DNA from: Longimicrobiales bacterium
GTDB taxonomy: Bacteria > Gemmatimonadota > Gemmatimonadetes > Longimicrobiales > Gaopeijiaceae
Assembly: GCA_965202805.1 (NCBI GenBank)
Contig: OZ241869.1
Location: 2,464,001 to 2,528,000 of the forward strand
Direction of reading: 5' to 3'
Length of the DNA stretch: 64,000 nucleotides
A program made the translations under genes and the position numbers. Of the stretch, positions 42,781-58,157 are shown piece by piece; the first letter of the stretch is position 1, and each line of letters begins with the position of its first letter. The notes below the pieces were generated by a model. The model ran no database searches. It was not told the origin of the DNA and saw only the letters and a program-made list of their open reading frames with translations.

Positions 42781-43047
42781 TCAGAACTCCGTCAGCACGG
42801 CGATCACCAGGATCACCGCCAGCGGCAGCGGGCTCGCGGCCAGGATCCACAGCCGTTTGGGCTCGAACTTCAGGTGCATGTAGTAGAGCGCCACCAGCAG
42901 GGCCTTCCAGAGCGCCATGAGGATCAGACCCGTGGCGAGCAGCCACTGCGGGAGGGCGAGAAACGCGTACCCCACCTCGGCCATCGTCAGAACGAAAAGT
43001 ATGAACCAGATCAGGAAGTATCTGGGTTCTTGCCCGTTGCCTGCCAT
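42781..43047 (-). CDS. ctaF: Cytochrome c oxidase subunit IV (CtaF-like)
   Basis: Y..IW..L.VLT..EV ... KALLVALYYMHLKFE; follows subunit III. Confidence 0.88.
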   Translation of the reverse strand: MAGNGQEPRYFLIWFILFVLTMAEVGYAFLALPQWLLATGLILMALWKALLVALYYMHLKFEPKRLWILAASPLPLAVILVIAVLTEF

Positions 43048-43090
43048 CCGGGTGTCTCCTTGGTTTCCAGGCGGCGGTCCGCCCCGATGA

Positions 43091-43726
43091 TCAGATCAGG
43101 TAAACGATGGTGAACAGGATGATCCAGACCAGATCGACGAAGTGCCAGTAGAGACCCATGATCTCCACCGCCCCGTAGTTGTCCGCCGAGTACTTGCCCT
43201 GCCACGCGCGGTAGAGCACGAACCACATGCACAGAATCCCGATCGTGACGTGGGTGCCGTGGAATCCCGTCATCGTATAGAAGGTGGCTCCGTACAGGGC
43301 GGCTCCCTCGATCTCGTGCGCCACGCCGTACAGCTCCACCATGGGCACGAAGCCCTCCTGCGCCAGCAGGATGTACTCGACCACCTGAACCCCGACAAAG
43401 AAGGTGCCGAGCAGGATCGTCACCAGGAGCCAGAATCTGAGCCCCTTCTGATCGCCCTGCGTGATCGCGGCGTAGGCCTTGACCATCGACACGCTCGAGC
43501 AAATCAGCACGAACGTGTTGAAGGCCGTGAGCGGCACGTTCAGCACCGCACCGGGCTCGGCGAAATGATCCGGGTGGGCGAATCGCAGGATGATGTAGGA
43601 CCCGATCAGGGCCGTGAAGAACATCACTTCCGACAGCAGGAAGATCCACATTCCCAGCTTTACGTTGTAGACCATCATCCCGGGCATGGGATGCCGGTCG
43701 GCTGTCGATGCGGCTGGTTGGCTCAT
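43091..43726 (-). CDS. ctaE: Cytochrome c oxidase subunit III
   Basis: GMWIFLLSEVMFF, NTFVLICSS, Q..EY, FYTMTGFHGTHV, GLYWHFVDLVW. Confidence 0.96.
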   Translation of the reverse strand: MSQPAASTADRHPMPGMMVYNVKLGMWIFLLSEVMFFTALIGSYIILRFAHPDHFAEPGAVLNVPLTAFNTFVLICSSVSMVKAYAAITQGDQKGLRFWLLVTILLGTFFVGVQVVEYILLAQEGFVPMVELYGVAHEIEGAALYGATFYTMTGFHGTHVTIGILCMWFVLYRAWQGKYSADNYGAVEIMGLYWHFVDLVWIILFTIVYLI

Positions 43727-43803
43727 GCGTCAGCTATCTCCTGAAGTTCCAGATCACTGGAGGGAATGCGGTTCGGCCGGCGAAACGAAGACGGGCATCG
43801 GGT

Positions 43804-45564
43804 CTAGTCCGCTACCGGCTGGGGTTCGAGCGCGGGCGCAGCGGTCTCGCTGGGCGGCGGAGTATCCTGCAACCAGTAGTCCTCTTCCACGTCGGGCGCG
43901 GAGTACTCGTACGGCCCGCGGTAGACGATGGGCACCAGCTCGAAGTTTCCGTGCGGCGGCGGCGACGGCACCGTCCACTCCAGGGAGTTGGCCTTCCACG
44001 GGTTGTTGCCGGCCTTTTTCCCCTTCCAGATGCTGATGATGAAGTTGAGGGCGTAGATCGCCTGAACCGCCACCAGCGCGAAGACGGCCATCGTGATGAA
44101 CTCGTTGATGGGCTGCAGGGGCTGCAGGAACTCGTACTGCGTGGGGTCGTAGATGCGCCGCATGTGACCCTGGATCCCGATCGAGTGCATGGGCCAGAAC
44201 ACGATGTTGTAGAGGATCATGGTCAGCCAGAAGTGGATCTTGCCCCACTTCTCGCTCATGAGCCGGCCGAACATCTTCGGATACCAGAACGTGACGCCGG
44301 CGAAGATCGCGAACAGGCTGCCGCCGAAGAGCACGTAGTGGATGTGCGCCACGATGAAGTAGGTGTCGTGGATGTAGACGTCGACCGGGGTCGAGGCCAT
44401 GAACACGCCCGAGAGCCCGCCGATGATGAACATCGACACGAAGCCCAGTGCGTGCAGCATGGGGGTGTGCAGGTGGATGTTCCCCTTGTAGATGGTCCCC
44501 AGCCAGTTGAACACCTTGATGGCGGACGGGACCGCGATGACCATGGTCGTGATCATGAAGGTGGTGCCGAGCATCGGGTTCATCCCGCTCTGGAACATGT
44601 GGTGCCCCCACACGATCCACGACAGGAAGGCGATGGAGACGATCGCCAGCACCATGGCGTGGTAGCCGAAGACCGGCTTGCGCGCGCCGTTGGCCAGCAC
44701 GTCCGAGGTGATGCCCATGGCGGGCAGGATGAGGATGTAGACCTCCGGGTGCCCGAAGAACCAGAACAGGTGCTGCCAGAGGAGCGGCTCGCCGTCGCTG
44801 GCCGGCAGGAAGAACCCGGTCCCGATGGTCTGGTCGAAGAGCAGCATGATCAGCGCGCCCGCCAGAATCGGGATCGCCAGCAGGATCAGGATCGCGGTGA
44901 TGAAGAGCGCCCAGGTGGCCAGCGGCATCCGGAACCAGGTCATCCCGGGCGCGCGCATGTTGATGATGGTCGTGATGTAGTTGACCGCGCCCGCCAGTGA
45001 CGCGAAGCCCAGGATGGTGAGGCTGATCAGCCAGAGCTGCTGCCCGAGGTAGACGCCGGTGTATTCCCCGCTTGCGCTGAGCGGGGCGTAGGACGTCCAG
45101 CCGGCTCCGGCCGCGCCTCCCTCGACCGCGAAGCTCGCGAGCATCAGCAGCCCGGCCGGGAACGCCATCCAGAACGACGCCATGTTGAGGCGCGGGAAGG
45201 CCATGTCGTCGGCACCGATCTGAAGCGGGATCAGCAGGTTGCCGAAGACCCCCACCAGCAGCGGCATGATCGCGAAGAAGATCATGATGGTGCCGTGCAT
45301 GGTGACCAGCGAGTTGTAGAACTCGGGCAGCATGATGGCGCCGGCGGGCGTGGGCGCCATCATCTCGTCGGGCAGGAGCATGCCTCCGGGCATGGGCTCG
45401 CTCGGGAAGCCCAGTTGCCACCGGATCATCATCGCCAGCAATCCCCCTACGACGAGGAAGAACAGGCTCATCAGGAGGAACTGGATGGCGATGATCTTGT
45501 GGTCGGTCGAGAAGACGTAACGCCGAATCCACGGCATCTCGTGGGCGTGCGCGTGCGCGTCCAT
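43804..45564 (-). CDS. ctaD: Cytochrome c oxidase subunit I, A1-type heme-copper oxidase
   Basis: STDHK, TMHG, DMAFPRLN (D channel), WFFGHPEVY (A1 signature), VWGHH, AVPSAIK (K channel), HDTYFIVAHIHY, MRRIY. Confidence 0.97.
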   Translation of the reverse strand: MDAHAHAHEMPWIRRYVFSTDHKIIAIQFLLMSLFFLVVGGLLAMMIRWQLGFPSEPMPGGMLLPDEMMAPTPAGAIMLPEFYNSLVTMHGTIMIFFAIMPLLVGVFGNLLIPLQIGADDMAFPRLNMASFWMAFPAGLLMLASFAVEGGAAGAGWTSYAPLSASGEYTGVYLGQQLWLISLTILGFASLAGAVNYITTIINMRAPGMTWFRMPLATWALFITAILILLAIPILAGALIMLLFDQTIGTGFFLPASDGEPLLWQHLFWFFGHPEVYILILPAMGITSDVLANGARKPVFGYHAMVLAIVSIAFLSWIVWGHHMFQSGMNPMLGTTFMITTMVIAVPSAIKVFNWLGTIYKGNIHLHTPMLHALGFVSMFIIGGLSGVFMASTPVDVYIHDTYFIVAHIHYVLFGGSLFAIFAGVTFWYPKMFGRLMSEKWGKIHFWLTMILYNIVFWPMHSIGIQGHMRRIYDPTQYEFLQPLQPINEFITMAVFALVAVQAIYALNFIISIWKGKKAGNNPWKANSLEWTVPSPPPHGNFELVPIVYRGPYEYSAPDVEEDYWLQDTPPPSETAAPALEPQPVAD

Positions 45565-46266
45565 CTACTGGTCCTCCTGATCGTCAGCGTCGTCGGCGTC
45601 GTCGGCGTCCGCGCTCCGGGAGGCGACCCACGCCTGGAAGTCGGCATCCTCGTACACGTTGAGTGTCCCGCCCATGGTCGTATGCAGGTTTCCGCACAGC
45701 TCCGCGCATCCGATGGGATACGCGCCCGCGGTGGTCGCTTCGAACCAGACGGTGATGTCCATCCCCGGCACGGCATCCTGCTTCACCCGCATCTCGGGCA
45801 GGAAGAACGAGTGCAGCACGTCCTCGGACCGGAGGGTGATGTTGACCGCCTGGTTCACCGGGACATGCATGATGTTGATCGTCGAGATGTCGTCGGCGGT
45901 GCCGGTGACCCCGTCCGTGCCGGCGTAGGTGATCTCCCACTCGAACTGCTTCGCGTTGACGATGTAGTCGAGGGCGTCGGCGGGCACGCTGTCCGGATTC
46001 TTCATCTGGTTCCACGACGGAATGCTGATGAAGGCCAGCCCCAGAACGGCGATGAAGGGGACGGTGGTCCAGACGATCTCCGCCTTCGTCGACCCGTGGA
46101 TGTAGGTGGCCTTCCGCCCTTCGCGGCGCCGGTAGCGGATGACGAAATAGACCAGGAGCGCCTCGGTGACCACGAAAACGATTCCCGTGACCACGAGGAT
46201 CGCATAGTAGAGGAAGTCGACGTCCGGCCCAAAGGTGGAATAACTGTCGGGGAGGAGCCAGCTCAT
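45565..46266 (-). CDS. ctaC: Cytochrome c oxidase subunit II (CuA), no fused cytochrome c
   Basis: 2 TM helices; EIVWT; QFEW; DVLHSF; KQDAVPG; CAELCGNLHTTM. Confidence 0.95.
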   Translation of the reverse strand: MSWLLPDSYSTFGPDVDFLYYAILVVTGIVFVVTEALLVYFVIRYRRREGRKATYIHGSTKAEIVWTTVPFIAVLGLAFISIPSWNQMKNPDSVPADALDYIVNAKQFEWEITYAGTDGVTGTADDISTINIMHVPVNQAVNITLRSEDVLHSFFLPEMRVKQDAVPGMDITVWFEATTAGAYPIGCAELCGNLHTTMGGTLNVYEDADFQAWVASRSADADDADDADDQEDQ

Positions 46267-46380
46267 GTTGGTGTTCTCCTGCTCGCTGCCGGGGATGATT
46301 CCGTGCGGGCTGGATGCCCGGTCGCGTACCGGACCGGCGCCCCAGCGGGGAGGCGCCGGCCCGTCCTCGGCGCTTCGTGT

Positions 46381-47259
46381 CTAATGGGTCGCGGGAGCGA
46401 GGGCGTGGGCTCCGGCACCGTGGGGATCGATCGGCTCGCCCATCGGCACCACGGCGTTCGCCGCCATCGCCTCCGAGAAGGAGAAGCTCACCATTGCGGT
46501 CTCGCCGGTGGTGACGGTGACGCTGGCGGTCTGCGTTCCGTAGCGCTCGTGCCATGCCTCGACCACGTACTCACCGGGCGGGAGCATGCCCAGGTCGGCG
46601 CCTCCCTCCATGTCCGTGACCCCGTGGAAGGGGTGGTCCAGCACGCCCACGTAGGCGCCCATCCAGCCATGCACGTCACAGCGCACCGGGACCATCACCT
46701 CCGCCAGCGGGAAGTTGCGGTTGGTGTCCATGTTCACCGGCTGGCTGATGTTGAAGCCGCGGTTTTCGCTGGGCGAGGCGTTGATGTTGTGGGGCAGGCC
46801 GTCCGAGTTGCGGAAGGTGAGGTCCTGTCCCGCCTGCACGCCCACGACCCTGGGCACGTAGCGGCAGCCGACCTGGTCCATGACCACCGCGCCGCCGGGC
46901 GTGGGGAAGCTCATGCCCGCGTCGAGGCCTTCCCGGACGTAGACGAAGACGTTGGCGAGGCCGCCGCCGTCGCCCACCACGACCTCCTCGGTCATCGGGG
47001 TGTCGGTGTACCGCGCCGCGCAATCCGGCTCGGACGCCATGTCGATCGCATCCATTTCGGGCGCCATGCCCTCGAACATCACCATCGCGTTGATGCCGCC
47101 CGCCGTGGCCATGTCGACGGGAGAGGCCATCTCCTCGCCGGCGGCCTCTTCCTCCATGCCGCCGCCGGCCTCACCTCCGCCGCCGCCACCGCACGCGATC
47201 GCGAATACCGCCGCCGTCGCCATCACCATGGCCCGGCCGCATCCAAACAGGTCTCTCAT
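46381..47259 (-). CDS. Lipoprotein with a cupredoxin (type-1 Cu) domain and a carboxypeptidase-regulatory-like beta domain
   Basis: Lipobox FAIAC; DQVGCRYVP; NSDGLPHNI; CDVHGWM (His..C-x2-H-x2-M, amicyanin spacing); PGEYVVEAWHE. Confidence 0.8.
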   Translation of the reverse strand: MRDLFGCGRAMVMATAAVFAIACGGGGGGEAGGGMEEEAAGEEMASPVDMATAGGINAMVMFEGMAPEMDAIDMASEPDCAARYTDTPMTEEVVVGDGGGLANVFVYVREGLDAGMSFPTPGGAVVMDQVGCRYVPRVVGVQAGQDLTFRNSDGLPHNINASPSENRGFNISQPVNMDTNRNFPLAEVMVPVRCDVHGWMGAYVGVLDHPFHGVTDMEGGADLGMLPPGEYVVEAWHERYGTQTASVTVTTGETAMVSFSFSEAMAANAVVPMGEPIDPHGAGAHALAPATH

Positions 47260-47293
47260 TCCTTCCTCCGTGGTGCTATTTGAACTTCGATGT

Positions 47294-48964
47294 CTACGCG
47301 TCGCCTTCATCCGGGCCCTCGGCGCCTTCCCGCTCGCGCTTCTGCGCCCGGGCCACCACCAGGACGCCCAGCCCGGCGGTGAGCAGCGTCGCGATCAGCG
47401 GCGCGACCACCACGGTGGCTGGCGTCGGTTCCTGCAGGAAAATGTAATGCCATGAACTGATCGAGCCCCTGGTCCCGGATTCGCCGTTGTCGCCGTCCCA
47501 GGCGGCGAAGCCGACGGGCACCGGTTCGCCCACGCGGAACTGCAGATCACCCGGATCCTCGGTCTCAAGAGCGCGGCGGAACATAACAGCCCAGCGTCCC
47601 GCCGAAAACGCCGCCTCCGATACGAGCGACTGGCTGGCGTCGCCCTGAGGGGCCATGGTGCCCAGCCCGCGGGCGTCCCCCTCCTGCGCGGCGCCCGCCG
47701 TGCTCTCCCAGTTCCACAGGTACACCGGGTTGAGGGGATCCCCCATGAGGAAGTAGGGCTTGTCCATTCCCTCGGGGATTTCCATGGGGAACTGAACGTA
47801 CAGGGCGTCGGGTCTCGGACCCGGTTCCATGTCGCCCTCGTCGGGTCCCACCACCTCGAGAATCCGGGCCTGGAAGTCGGCCCAGGCGGTGTCGGGGCTC
47901 TCGGAGTGGTCGCTCCAGGAGACGTGCACCGCGAGTTCGCCGCCGTCGTGCAGGGCGCGCACCCACAGCCCGCTCACCTGCGGGACGAACCAGCGCGGGC
48001 TCTCGATGATCTGTCCGCCCATGGGAATGTAGAACGCCTCCGCGGACTCCCACATCGGGTCGTCCACACCCTGCGGCAGGGGCGCATCCTCCACCAGACC
48101 GGCCCGGATCACCTCGGTGATGCCCGGCGGGTCCTCGGGCGCGAAGCTGCGCACGTAGTGGGAGAGGTTCCACAACTGTTCGTCGGTGATGACGCCGGCG
48201 TCGATGAGGTCGGTGAACGACGGCATCGGCGTCCCGTCCAGGCCGGTGCGCAGCCGCTGGTAGATGTCCTCCACCGTGCCGCCGCCGTTGAAGAACCAGT
48301 TCTCGGTCAGGTCCACCGAGTAGATCGGCATGCCGGTGTCGTCCACCAGCGTCGGCGACGAGGTGCCGTCGCCCCGTCCATCGGCGCCGTGGCAGCGGTT
48401 GCACTCGATGAGCTCGTAAACCTGCTGTCCGTCTGCGAGGGCTTCCTCGGTCGCCCGGGTCGGGCTGCTGAAGGTCATGGGCTCAGGGGCCTCGCCGGCG
48501 GCGAAGAAGCGCGAAAAACTCTTCAGGTAGTCGACGAGCGCCAGTCGCTCTTCGAGGCTGAGCTCTTCCTCCCATCCGGGCATCGTCGTGCCCGGCATGC
48601 CTTCGTTGATGACGCGCATGATGTCGTCGTCGGTGGGAAGCTGCCCGCTCGCCGTGGTGCGGATCTGGTAGAGCGCCTGGGTGAAGTCGCGCGGGCGCGG
48701 CAGCATGTACTCCGCCGCGTAGCCGTCGCCGAGACCTTCGTACCCGTGGCAGGACGCGCACCAGCGGTCGTAGACGTCCCGCCCGAGCGCGTTCTCTTCC
48801 TGGGCGTCCTGCGCGATCAGGGGCACCGGGCCGGCGCACACGATCGCCGCGACGAGAACGCTCGCCGCCGCCATCCCGAACGCAGCCCGGGTACGGACCC
48901 TCCGGGCGCGTCGCCGGGTGCCGCGTCCGTCTCTCTCCGCCGTTTCCATCGCCCGCGCCCGCAT
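47294..48964 (-). CDS. Diheme cytochrome c fused to an ethylbenzene-dehydrogenase gamma (EbdC/NxrC-like) heme-b domain
   Basis: CASCH..G.GDG..PRPRDFT; GMPGTTMP; CNRCH; GLDGTPMP; C-terminal VRALHDG..VSWSD, D..YVQFP, LMGDP..PVYLWNW, FAAWDG; C-terminal TM segment. Confidence 0.85.
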   Translation of the reverse strand: MRARAMETAERDGRGTRRRARRVRTRAAFGMAAASVLVAAIVCAGPVPLIAQDAQEENALGRDVYDRWCASCHGYEGLGDGYAAEYMLPRPRDFTQALYQIRTTASGQLPTDDDIMRVINEGMPGTTMPGWEEELSLEERLALVDYLKSFSRFFAAGEAPEPMTFSSPTRATEEALADGQQVYELIECNRCHGADGRGDGTSSPTLVDDTGMPIYSVDLTENWFFNGGGTVEDIYQRLRTGLDGTPMPSFTDLIDAGVITDEQLWNLSHYVRSFAPEDPPGITEVIRAGLVEDAPLPQGVDDPMWESAEAFYIPMGGQIIESPRWFVPQVSGLWVRALHDGGELAVHVSWSDHSESPDTAWADFQARILEVVGPDEGDMEPGPRPDALYVQFPMEIPEGMDKPYFLMGDPLNPVYLWNWESTAGAAQEGDARGLGTMAPQGDASQSLVSEAAFSAGRWAVMFRRALETEDPGDLQFRVGEPVPVGFAAWDGDNGESGTRGSISSWHYIFLQEPTPATVVVAPLIATLLTAGLGVLVVARAQKREREGAEGPDEGDA

Positions 48965-49767
48965 CAGTGCTCCTCCCCTTCGGCGCCCTCTTCCTCCCAG
49001 GTGCGCGGCTCCCAGCCGGTCTGCTCGTAGAGATAGATGATCACCTGCCAGATCTCCTCGGCGGTAAGCAGGTCCTCCCAGGCGGGCATCGCCGAGTCCC
49101 AGGGCGTGGCCTCGCGGGGCAGCCCGGGACCACCCTTCGCGATGCGCCAGAAGACGAAGCTCTCCGTAAGCTGAACGATGGTGCCCGGATCCTGGAAGCT
49201 GAGCGGCGCGGGGTTGAAGGCGCTCGCGAAGTGTCCCTGCCCGTCCAGGGCGTCGCCATGGCAGGCCATGCAGTTCTGGACGTAGACGCGCTTGCCTTCC
49301 TCGTAATGCTCGTTGAAGTCGCCCTCGTGCCGGAGCGGGTTCTCGAGCCCATCCAGGACCATGGTCTCTCCCCGGAAGTCGATCTGACCCGGGGGCGCCG
49401 GATGCACCGAGCGCAGCGCGGCGGGTGCCGACACCGTGGGCCGTACCCTGTCGAAGGTCATGAAGGCTACCAGCAGGGGAATGGTGACCATGAGCGCCGT
49501 GCGCAGAACCTTCTGGCGCGGATCGACCATGACCCGGTGGATCGGGGCCTTGAACTGCTTCCAGCGCTCCTCGGAGTCGCTGACCCAGATCAGGACGCCC
49601 ACCACCACCGTTCCCATGTATTGCAGAACCACGGTGGCGGGGACCGGGGCGCTGGCGACCCCGAACAGGGGCGGCAGGAGCCAGATTCCCCATTCGAAGA
49701 GGAGGTACGCCAGCACGACGACGATGGCCGCCTGGCCCAGCGGATGCTTCCAGGGCTTGGTGTTCAT
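48964..49767 (-). CDS. Membrane-anchored monoheme cytochrome c
   Basis: Three N-terminal TM segments; RSVHPAPP; CMACHG; FWRIAKGGPGLP; SAMPAW. Confidence 0.88.
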   Translation of the reverse strand: MNTKPWKHPLGQAAIVVVLAYLLFEWGIWLLPPLFGVASAPVPATVVLQYMGTVVVGVLIWVSDSEERWKQFKAPIHRVMVDPRQKVLRTALMVTIPLLVAFMTFDRVRPTVSAPAALRSVHPAPPGQIDFRGETMVLDGLENPLRHEGDFNEHYEEGKRVYVQNCMACHGDALDGQGHFASAFNPAPLSFQDPGTIVQLTESFVFWRIAKGGPGLPREATPWDSAMPAWEDLLTAEEIWQVIIYLYEQTGWEPRTWEEEGAEGEEH

Positions 49768-49795
49768 CGATTCTCCTCCCTCACCGGCGCCTCTC

Positions 49796-50605
49796 CTATC
49801 TCTGCGATGCGAGGAATTGCACGATCGCCTCGAGTTGGCCGGCGGTCAGCATGTCACCGAAGGTCGCCGGCATGGTCCCGGCAAAGGTCTCGTATCCCTC
49901 GGTGATCTCGGCATTCGGATCCAGGATCGATGTACGAATCTCGTCGGCCGTCATGCGCGATCCTATCCCGTCGAAGGGAGGGGCGAGCCGCACGGGCATC
50001 TCCATGGCGGCGGGCAGATGGCACGCCGTGCAGGTATTGACCTGCAACAGCATCTCCGGATCAAGGGTCGCGCCCCCGGCGCCCGGGGCGGCTGGCGTCA
50101 CCGCAGCCAGGCCGGCGGCAGGCGCGGCGTCACCGCCGTCCGCGAAGTCCGCCCCGGTAACCGTCACCACCCCTCCCATGGACTGCAGGTAGGCGACCAG
50201 CGCCCAGATCTGCACGGAGGAGAGGGTGCGGCTGGCGTCCAGCATGATCGGCGCGAACCCTTCGACCAGGTAGGCGTTGGGGTCCACCATCGACGTATGC
50301 AGGTACTGCTTGCAGTCCTCGCCCGGCACGCGGTTCGCGCAGCGTTGGCCGATGAGCCCGGTGCCCGCGTGGTCGGTGAGCAGGTTCGGGGCGCGCTCGC
50401 CCAGACCGTGGCAGGCCGTGCAGCCGCCCCCGCCGTTGTACAGTTCCTCGCCCGCCGCGACGAGTTCCTCGGGGCTGACGTCGTCCGACAATACCAGGTC
50501 CTCGGGCACGTCCGACTGGATCTGCGGAATGGCGTTGGCGACCCAGGTGAACACGCCCAGGCAGCCGATCACCACCGCCAGGATACTCAGGTTGGTCTTT
50601 AGCAT
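49796..50605 (-). CDS. Membrane-anchored diheme cytochrome c
   Basis: N-terminal TM segment; IPQ; CTACH twice; S..DPNA..M in each domain. Confidence 0.9.
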   Translation of the reverse strand: MLKTNLSILAVVIGCLGVFTWVANAIPQIQSDVPEDLVLSDDVSPEELVAAGEELYNGGGGCTACHGLGERAPNLLTDHAGTGLIGQRCANRVPGEDCKQYLHTSMVDPNAYLVEGFAPIMLDASRTLSSVQIWALVAYLQSMGGVVTVTGADFADGGDAAPAAGLAAVTPAAPGAGGATLDPEMLLQVNTCTACHLPAAMEMPVRLAPPFDGIGSRMTADEIRTSILDPNAEITEGYETFAGTMPATFGDMLTAGQLEAIVQFLASQR

Positions 50606-50614
50606 CTGCCTCCC

Positions 50615-52420
50615 CTATCCCTCGCTGGGTGCCGGCTGAAGTTCGCTCTGCATCCCGCCGGCGGCCGAAGCCTGCCCCACCGACGAGATCACGGGTTTCT
50701 CGGCCAGCGAGCCGAGCCAGAAGATGAAGGCCACCAGTCCGAAGAAGATGAGCACGCACGCGGAGATGACCACCGACGAATAGCCGAGCGCGGGGGTGGC
50801 CGCCCACGGGCTGGTGTCGCGAATCACCTCGAACACATGCCAGTGCTGGCGGATGCCGCTGCGGGCGAAGCCCATGAGGCCCATCAGCCAGGTGAAGGTC
50901 ACCGCCAGGATGAAGAGCGCGTACTGGGAGCGGTCCGGCATGCGGCCCCACTGGATCTCGCCTCTGGAGCTGGCGCCGCGCAGCATCAGCAGATCGATGG
51001 TGATCACGCCGATGATGCAGGCGAGCACGGTAAGCACCTGGTAGACCGAGAAGCTGATGCGCACGAGAGTCGGTACCATGTAGCCGTAGATCCCGTAGAA
51101 CAGCACGATCGCCGAGGCCACCACGAAGATCGCGCCCTGCACGATCGTGCCCGTGCGCGCCCACGACACCACCGGTTCCTTGTTGGCGCGCCGGTAGAGC
51201 AGGAACGACAGGAAGGTGGTCAGGATCATGAAGTTGACCGCCGTGTTCTTGCCGCTCATCAGCCCGAGGACGCTGAGGAAGGGGTGGTGCGTGCCGCCCA
51301 TCGCCGCGAACTCCTCGCGGCTGGCGATCATGGTGTTGGGGGTCGCCCACACGATCACGCCCACGATGAGCACCGCCAGCATGTACTTCGTGTAGGGCAT
51401 GAAGCGCTCTGCCCCGGGTATTCGCCCCATCCCCATCCAGAGGTAGTAGTTGCCGGCCAGGAAGAGCACCCCGATGAGGAAGGCCTGAATGATCCACAGC
51501 CAACTCATGAAGCCGCCCATCATGGTGATGCCCATCTGCTGGTTGAACTCGTAGATCTCCCGGCCCAGCCAGTAGCCGGCGAAGGGCAGGATGATGAGCG
51601 CGCCGATGGCGATCATGTTGCCCACGTAGCCCATCCAGTCGTAGTGGGCGCGCTCCTCGTCGCTCTTCGCCGCCAGGAAGCGGTACGCGGCATAGGCGCC
51701 GACCACCGCCCCCCCGAACACCACGTTGGCGATCAGCCGGTGGATGTTGATCGGCATCCAGGTCGCGTTGGTGAGCGCCGACCACAGCTGCACCATCTGG
51801 GGAGCCGTGTCGACGGTGACCTCGGCCGGCGGGCTCATCATGTAGGTCAGCCAGCCGTTGGCGATGAACATGACGATCGTGCCCCACACGTTCAGCGCGA
51901 TGCCCAGCCCCCAGTGGAACCACTTGGCGCGCCCCTTCTTCCACCGGTCCCAGCCGTAGTAGTACAGGTACAGCGTGAAGGACTCGAAGAAGAAGAGCCC
52001 CACGTAGACCCACATCGACAGGTTGAAGATCTGGGCGAGATAGCCGAACAGGGTGGGATAGATGGTGATCAGCAGGAAGAGCAGGATGCCGCCCCAGATG
52101 GCGGTGGCGGAGTAGGCGACCAGAAGGAGCCGGGTGAACTCCTTGGACAGCTTGTCGTAGCGCTCGTCGCCCCCGAACATGCCGATGGCCTCGGTGACCA
52201 CCGCGAACATGGGCACGCCCAGAACGAAGGCCGCGAAGAGCAGGTGCACCTGGGCGGCGATCCACACCGCGGCCCGTCCGCCGATTACGGGGAAGTCGCC
52301 GTAGTCGCGACCGGCGGGCACCTGGGCGAACGCAGGCTCGGCCATCACCAGGAGGGCGAGCACGCCCAGCAGCAGGAGCGGTCCGACGCCCACGCGCCAG
52401 GTCATTCCGGGTTTCGCCAC
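50615..52420 (-). CDS. Cytochrome bd-type subunit I-like (CydA superfamily, non-canonical)
   Basis: QVHLLFAAFVLG (H19 equivalent), FFFES..Y.Y.W (E107 equivalent), ANGW..MMSP, NIHRL (H186 equivalent), MGFARSGIRQHW (GRQPW-like). GTG start at 52420 follows GGAGAG; alternative starts at 52456 and 52405. Confidence 0.85.
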   Translation of the reverse strand: MAKPGMTWRVGVGPLLLLGVLALLVMAEPAFAQVPAGRDYGDFPVIGGRAAVWIAAQVHLLFAAFVLGVPMFAVVTEAIGMFGGDERYDKLSKEFTRLLLVAYSATAIWGGILLFLLITIYPTLFGYLAQIFNLSMWVYVGLFFFESFTLYLYYYGWDRWKKGRAKWFHWGLGIALNVWGTIVMFIANGWLTYMMSPPAEVTVDTAPQMVQLWSALTNATWMPINIHRLIANVVFGGAVVGAYAAYRFLAAKSDEERAHYDWMGYVGNMIAIGALIILPFAGYWLGREIYEFNQQMGITMMGGFMSWLWIIQAFLIGVLFLAGNYYLWMGMGRIPGAERFMPYTKYMLAVLIVGVIVWATPNTMIASREEFAAMGGTHHPFLSVLGLMSGKNTAVNFMILTTFLSFLLYRRANKEPVVSWARTGTIVQGAIFVVASAIVLFYGIYGYMVPTLVRISFSVYQVLTVLACIIGVITIDLLMLRGASSRGEIQWGRMPDRSQYALFILAVTFTWLMGLMGFARSGIRQHWHVFEVIRDTSPWAATPALGYSSVVISACVLIFFGLVAFIFWLGSLAEKPVISSVGQASAAGGMQSELQPAPSEG

Positions 52421-52439
52421 GTTTCTCTCCGAGGTTGTG

Positions 52440-53888
52440 TCAACTCCGGGGAACATCGTCATCCCCCGGAATTCCGTCGCGCGATACGGCCGCGGACATC
52501 TGTTTGCGTAGGAAGAAAGGGAGTCGCCTGGAGAAATCAACCGGCATGCCGCGGCGCACCTCCGCCATCACCTCGGCGGTCACGGCGGCGTACCCCTGCT
52601 TGCGAGCGAACGACTCCACGCGGTCGGACACCACGCCGCGCACGAAGCTGGGCACGACGGACAGGCGCGCGCGCGCCTCTTCGGTCCAGGGGAGGCCGGG
52701 GGCGGTGTCGTCGCCGTACACGACCTCGCGCCGCGGCTCGATCACGGCCCGGTCGCCGGCCGGATCGTAGGCGCAGGAGTCGTCGGGTCCGAGCAGGTCG
52801 CCGGTCAGGGCGTGGGCGCGCGCGCGACAGCCCCCGCACACCGCGCGGTACTCGCAGCGCCCGCACCGCCCCCCCAGCTCCCCGCCGCGCAGGCGGGCGA
52901 AGACCGGGGATGACTCCCACACCTGGCGGAAGGGGGTGGTGGTGAGGTCGCCTGCCACCACCGGCGTGTAGGGACAGGGAGTGACCTTGCCTTCCGGGGT
53001 GATGCGGCAGTAGTGGACGCCGCACGGACAGCGCGTGCCGTAGTTCAGGAGCGGCGACTCCTCCCCGCCCTCGATCACGTGGCGCATGATCTGCGGCTGG
53101 CACTTGGAGCGGACCATCATGCGGCCCCGGTACTCGCGCTCGAGCTCCACGAGCTCGGCCAGCACGGCCTCGTTCTCCTCCGGGGAGAGGCCCTGCATGC
53201 GCTCCCCCCGCCCGGTGGGAACCAGAAAGTACAGGTTGAACGAAACCGCGCCCCGGCTCTCCGCCCAGCTCGCGATATCGGCCACCTCCGCCCGGTTGCC
53301 CCGGGTTACGCTGGTCTGGACGATGAAGTCCAGGCGGTGCGCCGCGAGCCGGTCCACCGCGTCCAGCGTGTCGGAGAGCGCCCCGGACCCGTGGCGAAAG
53401 CGGTCGTGGTAGGTGTCGACGAGCGAGTCCACGCTCACCGCGACCCCCTTTACCCCCGCCTCCATGAGCGACTCGATTCGCCGGTCGGTGAGGCGGGTGC
53501 CGTTGGTGCCCACCACCACGGTGGCCCCGCCGGCGCTCGCCCGGGCCGCGATCTCCTCCAGGTCGTCGCGCAGAAGCGGTTCCCCGCCCGAGAGGATGAG
53601 CACCGGATTCGGGTTGACCTCCAGAATCTGGTCGAGCACGCGATGACACTCCGCGGTGGAGAGCTCGGTCTCGGCCAGGTGCCACGACCCCGCGGAGATG
53701 TAGCAGTGCGCGCACTCCAGATTACAGCGCCGGGTGAGGTTCCACGCGATGATGTGAGGGAGCCCGGGCGCCGCCCCCGAATCCGCCGACACGCCTTCCG
53801 CGACCCAGCGGAGGGAGGGGGTGGTCGAGGGTTCGGAGAAGCCGTCCCGCCCCAGGGTGGGGAGAACGGCGGTGGACGGATCGGCCAT
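52440..53888 (-). CDS. Radical SAM/SPASM enzyme (NirJ/Ahb-like) with C-terminal PCP_red domain
   Basis: AWNLTRRCNLECAHC, LSGGEPLLR, GTNG, PTGRG; SPASM CPCG..PCPY..CGRCEY..CGGCRARA..C; tail WTEEARARL..VPSFVR..VE.FA..G..VT.EVM. Confidence 0.9.
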   Translation of the reverse strand: MADPSTAVLPTLGRDGFSEPSTTPSLRWVAEGVSADSGAAPGLPHIIAWNLTRRCNLECAHCYISAGSWHLAETELSTAECHRVLDQILEVNPNPVLILSGGEPLLRDDLEEIAARASAGGATVVVGTNGTRLTDRRIESLMEAGVKGVAVSVDSLVDTYHDRFRHGSGALSDTLDAVDRLAAHRLDFIVQTSVTRGNRAEVADIASWAESRGAVSFNLYFLVPTGRGERMQGLSPEENEAVLAELVELEREYRGRMMVRSKCQPQIMRHVIEGGEESPLLNYGTRCPCGVHYCRITPEGKVTPCPYTPVVAGDLTTTPFRQVWESSPVFARLRGGELGGRCGRCEYRAVCGGCRARAHALTGDLLGPDDSCAYDPAGDRAVIEPRREVVYGDDTAPGLPWTEEARARLSVVPSFVRGVVSDRVESFARKQGYAAVTAEVMAEVRRGMPVDFSRRLPFFLRKQMSAAVSRDGIPGDDDVPRS

Positions 53889-56008
53889 CAGGCCTCTTCC
53901 CGGCGCATGAACTGCTCGACGGCGGCCTTCGCGTCGGCGGGGCTGACGGTCTTGAAGTCGACGGGGCAGTCGTCGGCCTGCTCGGCCACGTCGCGGATCG
54001 GGCAGCGGGTCACGCCCGACTCCCTGGCCTCCTCGATGAACTTGCGCATCTCCGGGGTCAGTCCGTCGACACCCTCGGCGGCGGCCTTGAGCTGCTTGGT
54101 CTGCAGCTCCCGGAACATCACCAGCATGGTGTCGGTGTCGAAGGTGTCCGCCTCCATCATGGCCTGCTTGTTCTCGTCCATGACCCGCGTGGTGATGCGC
54201 CAGAAATCGTGGTCGCGGGCGAAGCGCTCCACCGTGTTGCGGGCCAGGGGGCGGGCGATGAGCGGCACCGCGCCCAGGCGGTCGAAGGCCTCCTCCGTCC
54301 ACACCACCGGGTCGGCCGCCGTGCGCACCCGCTCATGCACGTGCCCGGTGTAGGGGCACTTCGTTTCGATGGTCGGGTTGGCGGGCACGGGATCGGCGTC
54401 GTTGCCCTCCACCACTGTGCGCTTCATGGCCTCTCCCGCCTTCACCTCGGCGAGGGCGAGCTCCTCGGCCGTGCCGATCCCCATGATGAGCTGCATGTGG
54501 GTGGGCAGCAGCTTGGCGATCGCCTCGTCCAGCCACTCGCTGGTCACCATGGGCAGGGTGCCGCCGGTGTCCCGCCCGGGCTCCAGAAGCGGCGGTTCGG
54601 CTCCACCGGATCCGTTCGCGCGCGCGGCCGAGGCGCCATTTGCGCGAGCCCCGTTGGCGCCGCCGGATCCGTTGGCGGAGGGCTCGGGCGCCTCCTCCCG
54701 CGGGCGCCAGTTCTCCAGCACGTATTCCTCCACCGCCTTGCGGGCGATGCCGAGCGCGAAGGGCGGGACGCGCAGGATGCGGACCTCCGCCTCCGGAGCC
54801 CACTCGAGCCCCATCTCGCCGTCTTCCTCGATCCAGGGAATCTCCTCGGGACGAACGTCGGTGGTGCCGATGAGGAGGATGTTCGCGTCCGACTGCCTGA
54901 GCAGATTGTGCGCCTGGGATCCCAGGTCCGTGCCTTCGATGCGGTGCGCTCCGTGGCGCGCGAGGATGAGCAGGCCGGGGTCGACTTCCTCGGCCCACTG
55001 CAGGATGACCTGGAAGGGCTTGCCGATGAGCACCTGGGTCTCCACTTCGACCTCCGGATACTCCTCCGCCATGATGCGCGCCCGCTTCACGTTCGCCTGC
55101 GCGAGCTTCAGCAGGCCCTTGTCGATGATGTTGTTGTGAAGCTCTTCCTGCTCCTCGAACTTGAAGATCTTCGAAGCCTGCACCGAGAGCACGTCCTTGA
55201 TGTTGCCGAAGACCGCGTGATGGTACTCGACATCGAAGGATGAGCCCACATAGAGCTTCGCCCCGTACTCCGACGCCATCTCCAGGGCGAGGCGCATGGC
55301 CTTGTAGCTGTACGCGGAGCCGTCCACGCACACCATGAAGCTGCCCCCGGCGAGCGGCCGCTCGTTCCGCACCACGAAGGCGTCCTTGTCCACCTTCTGC
55401 AGCACGCGCGCCACTACGCCGCCGAGCTGGGAGAAGGGCTGATGGCCGATGCCGTGCGCCCCGATCACCATCAGGTCGTAGTCGCGGCCGCTCGATCCGG
55501 CCAGCTTCTCGTCGTGATCCTCGTCCTCGGCGACGATGCGCCCGTCTTCGCCGAGGCGGACGTCGCTGCGCACCTTGTCGCCCCCGTCGTAGCTCGAGGC
55601 GATGTTCGGATCGAAGCCGATGAGGCTCGGCAGGTGGCCCTCACCCGAGTTCACCTCGCTCACGATCTCCTCGTAGTTGATGCCTTCCAGCAGCTGGCGC
55701 GTCAGCGGCACGCCGGCATCCCGGCAGCGGCGGTCGACCTGGTCGAGGAAGGAATCGGAGATGAGCTGCAGCCCCTTCTCGATCAGCTTGTCGTGGATCT
55801 TGCGCTGGCGCTTGATCTCGGCCTCGGTCTGAAACTGGGCGGGAAGCCCGGTCTCGAGCTGGCGGAAGCGGATGTCGTGCAGGCGCGCGGCGTAGACGTG
55901 GTTGCCGGTAACGTTTCCGTCGGAGCGCGAAGCGAGTTCGATGGCGCGATCCACCGCCCAGTCCGACCAGGGCGAGTTGTCCACCGGAACGAAGATCTCA
56001 CGATACAT
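53888..56008 (-). CDS. Tandem universal stress protein domains plus two PCP_red domains
   Basis: IFVPVDNS / VIGAHG..LGGV and VCVDGS / LARHG..LGS (two USP folds); WAPEAEVRI.RVPPF and WTEEAFDRL..VPLIAR. Confidence 0.88.
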   Translation of the reverse strand: MYREIFVPVDNSPWSDWAVDRAIELASRSDGNVTGNHVYAARLHDIRFRQLETGLPAQFQTEAEIKRQRKIHDKLIEKGLQLISDSFLDQVDRRCRDAGVPLTRQLLEGINYEEIVSEVNSGEGHLPSLIGFDPNIASSYDGGDKVRSDVRLGEDGRIVAEDEDHDEKLAGSSGRDYDLMVIGAHGIGHQPFSQLGGVVARVLQKVDKDAFVVRNERPLAGGSFMVCVDGSAYSYKAMRLALEMASEYGAKLYVGSSFDVEYHHAVFGNIKDVLSVQASKIFKFEEQEELHNNIIDKGLLKLAQANVKRARIMAEEYPEVEVETQVLIGKPFQVILQWAEEVDPGLLILARHGAHRIEGTDLGSQAHNLLRQSDANILLIGTTDVRPEEIPWIEEDGEMGLEWAPEAEVRILRVPPFALGIARKAVEEYVLENWRPREEAPEPSANGSGGANGARANGASAARANGSGGAEPPLLEPGRDTGGTLPMVTSEWLDEAIAKLLPTHMQLIMGIGTAEELALAEVKAGEAMKRTVVEGNDADPVPANPTIETKCPYTGHVHERVRTAADPVVWTEEAFDRLGAVPLIARPLARNTVERFARDHDFWRITTRVMDENKQAMMEADTFDTDTMLVMFRELQTKQLKAAAEGVDGLTPEMRKFIEEARESGVTRCPIRDVAEQADDCPVDFKTVSPADAKAAVEQFMRREEA

Positions 56009-56249: not shown

Positions 56250-56279
56250 ATTATACCGGAAATCGCCAATCGATGTCAA
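56250..56279 (-). promoter_or_regulatory. Consensus sigma70 promoter TTGACA-N18-TATAAT driving the USP-radical SAM-cydA-like-cox genes
   Basis: Plus-strand ATTATA at 56250-56255 and TGTCAA at 56274-56279 read as exact -10 and -35 hexamers on the minus strand, 18 bp apart. Confidence 0.8.
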
Positions 56280-56350: not shown

Positions 56351-56803
56351 TCAGAGATCCCATCCGGCGCGCGCCAGCATCCACAGGTTGATGACGATGA
56401 CGACGATGGCCGTGAGGTAGAACCCCGGGGGCAGCGCGGCGTCGGGTCCGGGCAGGAACGCGCCTTCGATCATGCTGGGCAGGCGCAGCGCATGCAGCGC
56501 CCAGATCCCCCGGGCGAGCCAGACGCTCCGCCGGAACCAGAGCCCCCAGAAGACGAGCGCCACGATGGCCGCCCCGAGCAGCAGCCAGAGCACGATGGGC
56601 CCGCGGATGGGGTTGACGAGCCCGTTGCGCCACATGGCGACCACGGCGGCCTCGTAGAGCAGCCCGACGTGCAGGTACCAGAAGGCGGCCTGCCGGAACT
56701 TGCGGGCGCGTGCGCCGGCGTTCTTCGGCGCGGGTCCCTGCTGCTGCCGCATCGTGGGAGCGGACACGGAATCGCGGGCGGCGTCCCGGCCTGACCCGGT
56801 CAC
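56351..56803 (-). CDS. Hypothetical 4-TM membrane protein
   Basis: RARKFRQAAFWYLHVGLLYE ... WMLARAGWDL; GTGA overlap with the upstream gene and a GGAGG RBS. Confidence 0.75.
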   Translation of the reverse strand: MTGSGRDAARDSVSAPTMRQQQGPAPKNAGARARKFRQAAFWYLHVGLLYEAAVVAMWRNGLVNPIRGPIVLWLLLGAAIVALVFWGLWFRRSVWLARGIWALHALRLPSMIEGAFLPGPDAALPPGFYLTAIVVIVINLWMLARAGWDL

Positions 56804-57252
56804 ATTTCCTCCAGTCCCAGGTCCGAGCGCGCCGTGTCCATGACCTCCGGGGTCATGCGGTCGATGCCTCGTTGGCGGGCGTAGTCGGTGTAGATGCGCT
56901 TCACCATGCCGCGCACGAAGGACGGCACCCGGCCCAGCCGATCCACCGCGGCCGGGGTCCACTCTACCCGGCCGGGGCGGGCGGGAGCGGGGGGCTCCTC
57001 CTCCACGAAGGCGTCCTGCCGTCCTCCCTCCAGGTTGCCCCGCACCAGTTCCATGGGCTGCTCGGGCACCGTCCGGCCTCCGATTTCGATGCCCATGCTG
57101 CTCACCAGCCGGGTCTCCATGGGGTTGGTGAGCATGGCGATGTCGAGCCCGCACGCCGAGCACTCGAACACCGCCGCCAGGGTGCCGTCCCCGGGCAGCT
57201 GGCGTTCCGCGAAGGCCATGATGTGATCGCACTGGATGCAGAGGAACTTCAT
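56800..57252 (-). CDS. Zn-ribbon plus PCP_red domain protein
   Basis: MKFLCIQC..FECSAC..TNPMET; C-terminal WTPAAVDRLGRVPSFVRGMVKR..YA..G..TPEVMD. Confidence 0.85.
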   Translation of the reverse strand: MKFLCIQCDHIMAFAERQLPGDGTLAAVFECSACGLDIAMLTNPMETRLVSSMGIEIGGRTVPEQPMELVRGNLEGGRQDAFVEEEPPAPARPGRVEWTPAAVDRLGRVPSFVRGMVKRIYTDYARQRGIDRMTPEVMDTARSDLGLEEM

Positions 57253-58157
57253 CGGCCATCCTCCTTCCCCGTCCCCCCGAGGCCGGCAAGCCTCCCCGCC
57301 AGCGCCCGGAAGGCGCGCGCGCTCGGCGAGTCTTCTCCTGCGGCGACGACGGGAGTGCCGCGGTCGGAGGTCTCGCCCAGACGGGGGTCGAAGGGGATCC
57401 TGCCCCAGATCTCCAGACCGGTGGCGCCGGCCAGGCGCGCGACGCCGTCTCCGGGAAAGAGGGGATCCGAGTGGCCGCAACACGGGCAGACGTATTCGGT
57501 CATGTTCGCGACCAGCCCCACCGTCGGGATTCCCTGTTCACGCGCCAGGCGCGCCGCCCGGGCCACCACCCGGCGCGACATCTCGGACGGAGTCGTCACC
57601 AGAAGCAGCGTCGCGAGCCCGGGCAGGAGCTGGAAGACACGCTCCATCTTGTCGGTACCCGGCGGCAGGTCCAACAGAAGGAAGTCGAGCTCGCCCCACG
57701 CCACATCCGACAGAAACTCGCGCACGGCCCCGGTCTCCATCGAACTCTGCCACAGGAAGCCGTCACCGGAGGGCGCACGCCAGCGCAGGGGAGCGTCGGC
57801 GTCGTTCTGCAGCAGCTCCATCGACATCACCCGGACCCCGCACGCGGCCGGCGCCGGAACCACGCCCTCGGCCCCGTCCACCAGCCGTTCCCCGGACGCG
57901 CCCAGCATGCGGGCCAGCGACGGGCCGTTCAGGTCGGCGTCCAGCGCGCCCACCGAACACCCCTCTCCGGCGAGGGCGGCGGCCAGGTTTGCCGTCACCA
58001 GGCTCTTGCCCACTCCGCCCTTGCCGCTTCCGACCGCGACCAGGTTGCGAATCCCCGCCAGCCGGCCGTCGAGCCGCCGCCGCTGGCCCCTGATCTGATC
58101 CACGAGCAGGTCGCCCGTCTGCGACTCCACCTCGTGGTAGGTGCGGATCTTTCTCAT
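57249..58157 (-). CDS. Mrp/NBP35 Fe-S carrier ATPase
   Basis: GSGKGGVGKS, LDADLNGPS, WGELDFLLLDLPPGT, ANM..CPCC, IPFDP. Confidence 0.92.
   Translation of the reverse strand: MRKIRTYHEVESQTGDLLVDQIRGQRRRLDGRLAGIRNLVAVGSGKGGVGKSLVTANLAAALAGEGCSVGALDADLNGPSLARMLGASGERLVDGAEGVVPAPAACGVRVMSMELLQNDADAPLRWRAPSGDGFLWQSSMETGAVREFLSDVAWGELDFLLLDLPPGTDKMERVFQLLPGLATLLLVTTPSEMSRRVVARAARLAREQGIPTVGLVANMTEYVCPCCGHSDPLFPGDGVARLAGATGLEIWGRIPFDPRLGETSDRGTPVVAAGEDSPSARAFRALAGRLAGLGGTGKEDGR

Follow-up and report, generated by a model that had tools for sequence, protein, structure and literature searches.

A bd-like haem protein and its c-type cytochromes encoded in one conserved gene string with an aa3 oxidase and a radical SAM cassette in Gemmatimonadota

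The window analysed here, a stretch of 64,000 nucleotides (C1:2464001-2528000), is part of the complete single-contig genome of a marine bacterium of the order Longimicrobiales in the phylum Gemmatimonadota (4.02 Mb, completeness 97.98%, G+C content about 69%). Its minus strand carries a respiratory gene block in which a CydA-like, so-called bd-like haem protein, a c-type cytochrome with two haems (c2), another with one (c1), a fusion of a dihaem cytochrome c and an EB_dh domain (cE) and a type-1 cupredoxin, together referred to as the bd-like module, are encoded directly upstream of ctaC, ctaD, ctaE and ctaF, the genes of an aa3-type haem-copper oxidase (Table 1). The original prediction, which was made from the letters of the window alone, had listed these nine contiguous genes as an undescribed module, and all nine, ctaCDEF included, were verified by Pfam. 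The spacers calculated from the coordinates are short or overlapping, as had been noted (9, 28, -1, -17, 114, 0, 77 and 43 bases), the widest being the 114 bases (46267-46380) between the cupredoxin gene and ctaC. While the nine genes are real, the conserved co-oriented block is longer than was thought: it extends upstream to position 58508 and comprises 14 genes, including those for a ferredoxin, an Mrp-type ATPase, two PCP_red proteins and a radical S-adenosylmethionine (SAM) enzyme, hereafter called the cassette. The CydA-like gene had been placed at 50615..52420; the gene stands, but its start is better set at the ATG at 52456 than at the GTG at 52420, because close orthologues are 613 amino acids long. 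Five CxxCH motifs were counted in total, in agreement with the proposed five c-haems, with none of them in the CydA-like protein. Furthermore, Pfam analysis of the open reading frames (ORFs) of the block found no Rieske, cytochrome b, ActB or ActC gene inside it, as had been stated.

Table 1. Features of the gene block, listed from its upstream end; coordinates are positions in the window.
Feature	Coordinates	Strand	Basis
Small 4Fe-4S ferredoxin	58182..58508	-	Pfam Fer4_15 and Fer4_13
Mrp/NUBPL-type Fe-S cluster carrier ATPase	57249..58157	-	Pfam ParA (NUBPL iron-transfer P-loop NTPase), 231 bits
227-amino-acid protein with C-terminal PCP_red domain	56800..57483	-	PF08369, 49 bits; start uncertain, ORF overlaps Mrp gene
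Putative sigma-70-like promoter	56250..56279	-	12/12 consensus matches: TTGACA, 18-base spacer, TATAAT
706-amino-acid protein with two Usp and two PCP_red domains	53888..56008	-	Pfam Usp (99.6 bits), PCP_red
AhbD/NirJ2-like radical SAM/SPASM enzyme with C-terminal PCP_red domain	52440..53900	-	Pfam Radical_SAM, SPASM, PCP_red
CydA-like "bd-like" haem protein (OR-N1/N2 type)	50615..52456	-	PF01654, 77.7 bits
Membrane-anchored dihaem cytochrome c (c2)	49796..50605	-	Pfam, two cytochrome c domains
Monohaem cytochrome c (c1) with three N-terminal membrane segments	48964..49767	-	Pfam, one cytochrome c domain
Dihaem cytochrome c/EB_dh fusion (cE) with C-terminal membrane anchor	47294..48964	-	Pfam; EB_dh 60.2 bits
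Type-1 cupredoxin with CarboxypepD_reg-like beta-sandwich, probable lipoprotein	46381..47310	-	Copper ligands, fold
CtaC, subunit II, CuA site, without cytochrome c domain	45565..46266	-	Pfam COX2, COX2_TM
CtaD, subunit I, A-family, GHPEV motif	43804..45564	-	Pfam COX1, 504 bits
CtaE, subunit III	43091..43726	-	Pfam COX3
CtaF, subunit IV	42781..43047	-	Pfam COX4_pro

The module is indeed linked to ctaCDEF, as proposed, and this linkage is conserved. It was followed in 80 species-level loci, which are the best 80 from GTDB genomes, were found with a query made from 8 close sequences and are all from Gemmatimonadota, so that the set is silent on other phyla. The full string is present in 54 of these loci and cut by contig ends in the other 26, with none deviating. 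The preceding part, from the Usp gene over the radical SAM gene to the CydA-like gene, is intact in 69 loci, cut in 10 and rearranged in one, and the genes for the ferredoxin (always co-oriented upstream of the block), Mrp and the 227-amino-acid PCP_red protein were found in 56, 57 and 59 loci, respectively. The best-conserved gene of the block is the CydA-like gene, with a median identity of 74.8% compared to 69.5% for CtaD. In addition, 20 stretches were fetched from 19 carrier genomes. All 19 orthologue loci show the same order Usp, radical SAM, CydA-like, c2, c1, cE, cupredoxin, ctaC, ctaD, ctaE and ctaF. The twentieth stretch (L050) holds a Gemmatimonadota paralogue cluster of 52% identity, which encodes cytochromes and two cupredoxins and has no cta genes.

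For the distribution in the phylum, a genome was called a carrier if it has a CydA-like orthologue of at least 70% identity. This applies to 85 of the 301 sampled genomes (the counts for the CydA-like protein, CtaD and ActC include the unpublished genome G181, that for ActC also G096 and G057). The carriers are distributed patchily: they make up 22 of 23 genomes in family f7, and genus g2, which belongs to the same family as the window, has none among 19. Of the 301 genomes, 82 have a CtaD orthologue with 65% identity or more, and 79 of these are carriers; in five of the six carriers lacking a CtaD match, the contig breaks off 5.4-6.0 kb away from the CydA-like gene. Five non-carriers were inspected, and their CtaD proteins are only 48-49% identical and encoded in a different operon, while a radical SAM orthologue is absent from all five. 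The island was gained and lost largely as one unit in this phylum.

A metagenome scan for which distant relatives served as seeds extended the picture beyond the phylum and detected the core order CydA-like, c2, c1, cE in loci with a G+C content of 0.37-0.69 and CydA-like identities of 44-57%. The core is flanked by genes for Usp/PCP_red and radical SAM/PCP_red proteins in L152, L153, L164 and L208; three of these loci have no cta genes, and what L208 has is only a divergently oriented COX2-like gene. As the cassette recurs beside the module in such distant loci, mostly without cta genes, it follows the bd-like module and not the aa3 oxidase. A gene for a flavin adenine dinucleotide (FAD)-dependent amine oxidase (HemY-like) is located near the core in L152, L153 and L208, and cupredoxin homologues with the same copper ligands are encoded in L147, L150, L152, L153, L155 and L179. 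Two CCP/MauG genes accompany the module in L150 and L153. L208 contains an ActB-like gene directly upstream of the CydA-like gene as well as SCO1 and COX2 genes, and L219 contains SCO1 and, in a different gene order, COX3-COX4-COX2-COX1. Adjacency to a haem-copper oxidase therefore recurs in at least one differently ordered arrangement. Both L150 (4761-7223, minus strand) and L153 (1286-3514, plus strand), which have a low G+C content, also encode a large HEAT-repeat protein adjacent to the cupredoxin gene; the repeats are of the PBS-lyase type, which, along with the PCP_red proteins, hints at tetrapyrrole handling.

Module and aa3 operon are also found apart. Three genomes of family f8 (G069, G127 and G154) have an orthologous ctaCDEF operon without the module; in the fetched loci of G069 and G154, tblastn found no module gene beside the cta operon, and the gene upstream of ctaC in G069 is divergently oriented. 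The two are thus separable units that this phylum keeps in tandem. It could be argued that the module with its cassette on the one hand and the aa3 operon on the other are mere neighbours, which share neither an electron path nor any contact. The f8 operons would fit this reading, as would the loci in which the module stands without cta genes (L050, L150, L152 and L153) and the position of the widest spacer exactly between the two halves. The order and orientation of the string are, on the other side, kept without exception across at least six families, CydA-like and CtaD genes were gained and lost jointly (85 and 82 genomes, 79 with both), and L219 offers a second, differently ordered neighbourhood of a CydA-like protein and a haem-copper oxidase. 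We regard independence of the two halves as distinctly unlikely.

Transcripts bear on the same question. Contigs from sponge and coral metatranscriptomes (runs X1, X2, X3 and X6, from three studies) match most of the block with 90-99% identity and hence come from relatives of the organism. In the 32 of 524 pieces listed, and with DNA carry-over in the libraries being possible, the junctions CydA-like/c2, c2/c1, c1/cE, ctaD/ctaC and ctaE/ctaD are bridged, and the listed contigs around the cupredoxin/ctaC spacer stop or start within its 114 bases, which would again suit mere neighbours. The missing bridge over this spacer, a low cover at 55975-57567 and a higher word depth over the cta genes were all rejected as uninterpretable, since contigs of other organisms add depth, the 32 pieces are only part of the total and DNA carry-over is possible.

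The CydA-like protein was analysed for its fold, since a phmmer search against PDB sequences matched at most residues 43-175 (5doq) and 53-291 (9r2g). By profile it exceeds the PF01654 (Cyt_bd_oxida_I) cut-off of 26.2 bits, and it is the only match to this family in the whole genome. An AlphaFold model (predicted local distance difference test, pLDDT, 82; predicted template modelling score, pTM, 0.84; alignment of 35 rows) consists of a signal-like helix followed by 13 long helices. The ten best Foldseek matches of this model are all CydA chains (E 3e-8 to 3.5e-5), and VIA-align superposed it on all solved CydA chains with Z 28-32, a root-mean-square deviation of about 4 Å and about 345 aligned residues, with model residues 40-582 lying on residues 5-510 of the CydA chain. 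The entire 9-helix CydA core is therefore present. Compared with the canonical CydAB oxidases (E. coli bd-I, 6rx4; Geobacillus bd, 5doq), the subunit I fold is the same (Z 30-32), whereas CydB and the Q-loop are missing and c-type cytochromes are the partners instead. After the CydA chains, the next-best structural matches are ActC of alternative complex III (ACIII), a protein of the NrfD family (Z 18-19.5, about 320 residues), and PsrC (Z 15).

In a MAFFT alignment with E. coli CydA, four positions are kept: His59 corresponds to His19, Glu146 to Glu107, His227 to His186 and the motif Arg524-Gln-x-Trp to Arg448-Gln-x-Trp. His19, His186, Met393, Glu445, Glu99 and Glu107 of the E. coli protein are positions which we take to be haem ligands or parts of proton channels. 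The Q-loop region of E. coli CydA faces residues 266-435, which are predicted to form transmembrane helices. The original prediction left room for a canonical quinol oxidase with a cydB partner elsewhere. This did not hold, as the Q-loop is replaced by helices and no PF02322 match was found in the complete 4.02 Mb genome, not just in the block; a control search with the same profile gave matches in 9 of 14 reference genomes.

By its features, the protein fits the OR-N (N1/N2) class of bd-like proteins when held against the published description: a quinol site is lacking, subunit I carries no motif for haem c, and the helices number about 14. The CxxCH motif inside subunit I that marks the OR-C group was not found in it. 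In the text of the preprint by Murali, Gennis and Hemp (2021, 10.1101/2021.01.16.426971), OR-N proteins are classed as oxygen reductases, N1 and N2 proteins have about 14 helices, and OR-N2 often lacks a second CydA-like gene. The protein described here resembles OR-N1/N2 as they are described there in having no quinol site and no CxxCH, in keeping the His19 equivalent and in lacking a second CydA-like gene. Gemmatimonadota are not mentioned in the preprint text, while its supplementary distribution tables may list them. The nearest named relative belongs to a Nitrospira/Manganitrophaceae cluster (40% identity). Some cultivated Nitrospirales are reported in a passage of PMC12342949 to have no other oxidase.

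A complex of the CydA-like protein with c1 was predicted with an ipSAE of 0.68 (runs 0.71, 0.64 and 0.68), whereas the best control scored 0.00. Among solved complexes, 116 of 157 attain the mark applied to this score, compared with 2 of 215 mismatched pairs; these counts are rough because own alignments were used. The runs have at least 57% of contacts in common, with a partner pLDDT of 75 or more. In the confident interface, c1 residues 28-69, which are membrane segments, contact residues 307-382 of the CydA-like protein; on this side it falls within the helices and the loop found instead of the Q-loop and includes Trp328, Pro361 and Glu370, three residues that are nearly invariant in the CydA-like family. 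In the relatives P0122, P0124 and P0136, the CydA-like protein is naturally fused to one or two cytochrome c domains, and it is c2 that is carried as the fused part. The model supports a predicted docking of monohaem c1 on the helices that take the place of the Q-loop.

The haem-binding motifs of the three cytochromes are conserved in homologue sets that, together with that of the cupredoxin, count 93-118 sequences and reach down to 25-30% identity. In c2, both CxxCH motifs, Met121 and Met245 are at least 95% conserved (110 homologues); in c1, CxxCH and Met227 are conserved (118 homologues), and in cE both CxxCH motifs (107 homologues). The cupredoxin gene product matches CarboxypepD_reg in Pfam, and its Copper-bind match is sub-threshold (E 0.0098, 16.7 bits, cut-off 21.2), but the type-1 copper reading that had been proposed is upheld by the ligands and the fold: none of the 93 homologues, which reach down to 25% identity, departs from His174, Cys211, His214 and Met217, and the AlphaFold model (pLDDT 83.7) matches amicyanin, pseudoazurin and plastocyanin with a probability of 1.0 and a target-normalised template modelling score of 0.5-0.73. 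The sequence FAIAC, read by eye, is presumably a lipobox.

The EbdC-like domain of cE, which had been recognised before, was recovered as EB_dh (PF09459) above the cut-off of 33.3 bits. The EbdC-type profile TIGR03477 gives 85 bits, below its cut-off of 169.85. The haem b of EbdC and other gamma subunits of type II dimethyl sulfoxide (DMSO) reductases has axial ligands that we take to be Met and Lys. Among the residues screened, only His339 and three Tyr positions reach 60% conservation, and no haem b is claimed for this domain because no Met or Lys does so in the 107 homologues.

Such a domain might serve for electron entry: it would dock a periplasmic dehydrogenase as NxrC docks NxrAB, and electrons would pass over the c-haems to the aa3 oxidase, to the haems of the bd-like protein, or to both. 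Its relationship to the type II DMSO reductase gamma subunits (TIGR03477, 85 bits) is in line with this, and so is the location of homologous clusters within nxr gene clusters in the accounts given in PMC6606698 and PMC3578206. Moreover, a molybdopterin enzyme and a NarJ-like chaperone are encoded elsewhere in the genome, in the cluster at C1:3960777-3967829 (L009:6778-13829). This cluster comprises a 976-amino-acid molybdopterin subunit, a NarJ/TorD-like chaperone, a 521-amino-acid 4Fe-4S/NrfD membrane fusion and a transporter of the sulfate permease family. Its molybdoenzyme accordingly has its own Fe-S/NrfD membrane subunit, which speaks against a use of cE, as does the lack of a conserved Met or Lys in EB_dh. 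No gene for a catalytic alpha or beta subunit, that is, for a molybdopterin or Fe-S subunit, was detected in the block, its flanks or the 80 loci (tblastn with the block genes only; the genome was not searched for NxrA). Electron entry through a docked dehydrogenase is highly improbable on this evidence.

The cassette upstream of the CydA-like gene encodes a radical SAM/SPASM enzyme whose best NCBIfam matches, AhbD (TIGR04545, 271.9 bits) and NirJ2 (TIGR04055, 271.3 bits), span the full radical SAM/SPASM core. Both scores lie below the curated cut-offs of 500, so an equivalog-level identity with AhbD or NirJ2 was not obtained, and judged by its profile matches the enzyme would belong only to the wider haem-modifying radical SAM/SPASM group. 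It differs from AhbD and NirJ by an added C-terminal PCP_red domain. All four PCP_red matches of the genome lie inside the block, and a separate ChdC is encoded elsewhere in the genome. We infer that the cassette finishes, tailors or delivers haem for the bd-like complex.

Between the gene of the 227-amino-acid PCP_red protein and the Usp gene there is a gap of 790 bases (56009-56799), which contains a putative sigma-70-like promoter (56279-56250) about 240 bases 5′ of the Usp gene. This promoter is a consensus match alone, and the scan gave 2 sites in 18 kb compared to 1.6 expected. Inside the resulting leader of about 240 bases, a terminator-like hairpin (56211-56190) follows the promoter. 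When the leader and the intergenic region were scanned against Rfam (1 kb, 55900-56900), nothing was matched up to E 1.

The downstream half of the string encodes an A1-type haem-copper oxidase, with COX1, COX2, COX3 and COX4 subunits identified by Pfam, a CuA site and a D-channel Glu motif. The translations contain GHPEV in CtaD, which we take as the mark of A1, and Cys-x3-Cys-x3-His-x2-Met in CtaC, taken as that of CuA. CtaC has no cytochrome c domain, and a dependence of the aa3 oxidase on the module was considered for this reason. This was rejected as an argument, as the unlinked aa3 oxidases of the non-carriers G064 and G079 lack the domain as well.

The original prediction called the module undescribed. 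It has in fact been described for Nitrospina, Kuenenia and Nitrospira: the parts of Lücker et al. (2013, PMC3578206) and Mundinger et al. (2019, PMC6606698) that deal with the bd-like clusters list a bd-like protein, a dihaem cytochrome c, a monohaem cytochrome c, an alternative NxrC and a cupredoxin, and, set against these published descriptions, all five components are found in the window. The likeness extends to details given there. The proteins of Nitrospira, Nitrospina gracilis and Kuenenia stuttgartiensis are CydA-like with 14 helices, have helices in place of the Q-loop and lack the quinol residues, and the same clusters encode a protein of about 60 kDa with two c-haem motifs, a haem b domain of the DMSO reductase type and a membrane helix, to which cE corresponds. 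An ACIII-like role has been proposed for the module in both papers. Unlike in the nitrite oxidisers, the block has no nxrAB, and unlike in nitrite oxidisers and anammox bacteria, the module stands in one co-oriented string with ctaCDEF and the radical SAM/PCP_red cassette. In the literature that was searched, no paper was found on a Gemmatimonadota form of the module or on a radical SAM cassette beside bd-like proteins.

In Flavobacterium johnsoniae, an ACIII-caa3 supercomplex (PDB 6btm) reportedly has a multihaem c donor module encoded upstream of the cytochrome c oxidase. The string described here resembles such operons in having a donor-like module 5′ of the oxidase, whereas ActB and ActC are absent from the block and the ACIII operon is separate. 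That operon, complete and ACIII-like, is located at C1:2549165-2556784, about 33-37 kb from the block, and encodes a multihaem cytochrome c, an ActB-like protein of 1006 amino acids, an NrfD-type ActC, a monohaem cytochrome c and a protein of 432 amino acids. ActC was detected in 290 of the 301 genomes; of the 85 carriers, 84 have it, and the one without a match (G184) is an assembly of 130 contigs. The suggestion that the module stands in for complex III was not borne out by this survey of the carriers, nor by family f8, in which the aa3 operon stands alone. The island does not replace ACIII, and its aa3 oxidase can exist without the module.

A complex III-like function beside ACIII has nevertheless to be weighed. 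The bd-like protein would meet the quinone pool at a non-canonical site and pass electrons over the c-haems and the cupredoxin to CuA, while in nitrite oxidisers and anammox bacteria they would take the reverse direction. For nitrite oxidisers, such a role is also proposed in PMC3578206. The location directly 5′ of ctaC and co-oriented with it, in 54 of 80 loci with the rest cut, is one often taken by donor complexes, and in L208 it is an ActB-like gene that directly precedes the CydA-like gene. A constant module with varying partners, namely aa3 here and in L219, CCP/MauG in L150 and L153, and nitrite oxidoreductase (NXR) in the published descriptions, could point to a general quinone-to-periplasm coupler, a role that its presence in the anaerobic anammox bacteria (PMC3578206, as far as its account of the clusters goes) would also suit. 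Furthermore, the model resembles the quinone-binding proteins ActC and PsrC (Z 15-19.5), a likeness of fold only. Such a path has to contend with the helices in place of the Q-loop in a family that is described, in the text of 10.1101/2021.01.16.426971 and in PMC3578206, as having no quinol site, and no alternative quinone site was identified. The orthologous aa3 operons of f8 do without the module, and since ActC is near-universal (84 of 85 carriers, 290 of 301 genomes), a complex III-like role would be redundant. Overall, this function seems somewhat unlikely, though it deserves serious consideration.

Among the other respiratory genes, the region C1:2082173-2086447 contains a gene for a 513-amino-acid fusion of cytochrome b N-terminal, 4Fe-4S dicluster and FlpD domains, the last being the delta domain of methyl-viologen-reducing hydrogenase (L007:6174-7715, minus strand). 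Divergent to it, at 2.08 Mb, a second and distant haem-copper oxidase is encoded (L007:8166-10447, plus strand) with a COX2-like protein of 187 amino acids and a COX1-like protein of 573 amino acids (196 bits). Two Rieske-domain genes are present in the genome, both distant from the cytochrome b fusion gene.

Several other genes of the window are of note. A 318-amino-acid membrane protein at 41544-42500 (minus strand), without Pfam or NCBIfam match and with two similar halves by tblastn, is found 3′ of ctaF or near the block in many related loci, and two neighbouring DUF6644 membrane proteins were annotated by Pfam at 35280-36323 (minus strand). On the other side, hemA (glutamyl-tRNA reductase) and hemB (5-aminolevulinate dehydratase) lie at 58511-60979 (plus strand), divergent to the ferredoxin end; among the related loci they are located beside the block only in L060, L063, L093 and L099.

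The reading that we tentatively prefer, and to which we give somewhat less than an even chance, is that of a bd-like terminal reductase fed by cytochromes c and a cupredoxin, which has its own haem maturation cassette and is co-encoded with a dedicated aa3 oxidase. It corresponds to the alternative named in the original prediction, in which a second terminal reductase receives its electrons from cytochrome c and is expressed together with the A1 oxidase, and which we consider the best reading. Three parts would work together. The cassette (ferredoxin, Mrp, PCP_red proteins and radical SAM enzyme) would supply or tailor haem for the second part, a cytochrome c-linked membrane complex of the OR-N1/N2 type, in which the helices replacing the Q-loop are predicted to clamp the membrane hairpin of c1. 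The proteins c2, c1, cE and the blue-copper lipoprotein might form a periplasmic wire of five c-haems and one copper. The third part would be the dedicated, proton-pumping A1-type aa3 oxidase. Electrons from the quinone pool would pass through the ACIII encoded elsewhere and c-type carriers to the wire, which would feed two jointly produced terminal enzymes: the aa3 oxidase, and the bd-like complex with O2 as its most likely acceptor. The oxygen-related neighbours are in support of this: the aa3 oxidase here, SCO1 and COX genes in L219, SCO1 and COX2 in L208, and CCP/MauG in L150 and L153.

Several observations weigh against this preferred reading. In the MAFFT alignment, the E. coli positions Glu99, Glu445 and Met393 are occupied by Tyr139, Leu515 and Val462, the alignment of the C-terminal half being weak; owing to these changes, a canonical three-haem O2 site is not established. 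Neither does the EB_dh domain of cE show a conserved Met or Lys. None of the 32 listed RNA pieces, out of 524, bridges the 114-base spacer between the cupredoxin gene and ctaC, and the f8 operons indicate that module and aa3 oxidase are not obligate partners. We know of no member of the CydA-like (OR-N) family that has been assayed to date. Parallel terminal oxidases are usually encoded in separate operons, and donor-acceptor pairs like ACIII and caa3 often share one, so a serial, complex III-like role would explain the tandem layout no less well. Finally, the module is also described in PMC3578206, within its account of these clusters, for the strictly anaerobic anammox bacteria, in which O2 reduction is for this reason unlikely to be the main role.

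A more far-reaching version of the preferred reading can be formulated, which we hold to be unlikely as a whole. OR-N enzymes would generally be cytochrome c oxidoreductases in which helices for the docking of a membrane cytochrome c took the place of the lost Q-loop. They would depend on the cassette, with tetrapyrrole-binding PCP_red domains in the radical SAM enzyme and in carrier proteins and with Mrp and the ferredoxin, to produce or insert, independently of oxygen, a special active-site haem that corresponds in function to haem d. In Gemmatimonadota, the cupredoxin would join the complex to the aa3 oxidase in a supercomplex of two oxidases.

In Nitrospira, the bd-like (OR-N) proteins are presumed to act as terminal oxidases, and they are conserved in Nitrospina and in anammox bacteria as well; to our knowledge none has been purified. 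Gemmatimonadota are described as heterotrophic, and with cultivable members in the phylum and no NXR beside the module, the system is found here separated from nitrite oxidation. It is linked here with an ordinary aa3 oxidase and with a radical SAM cassette of the haem type, which is a candidate for its maturation system, and the model supplies a predicted docking site for a cytochrome c subunit. This may offer a tractable route to a question that concerns nitrifiers and anammox bacteria alike, namely whether the bd-like complex is an oxidase or a link to the quinone pool.

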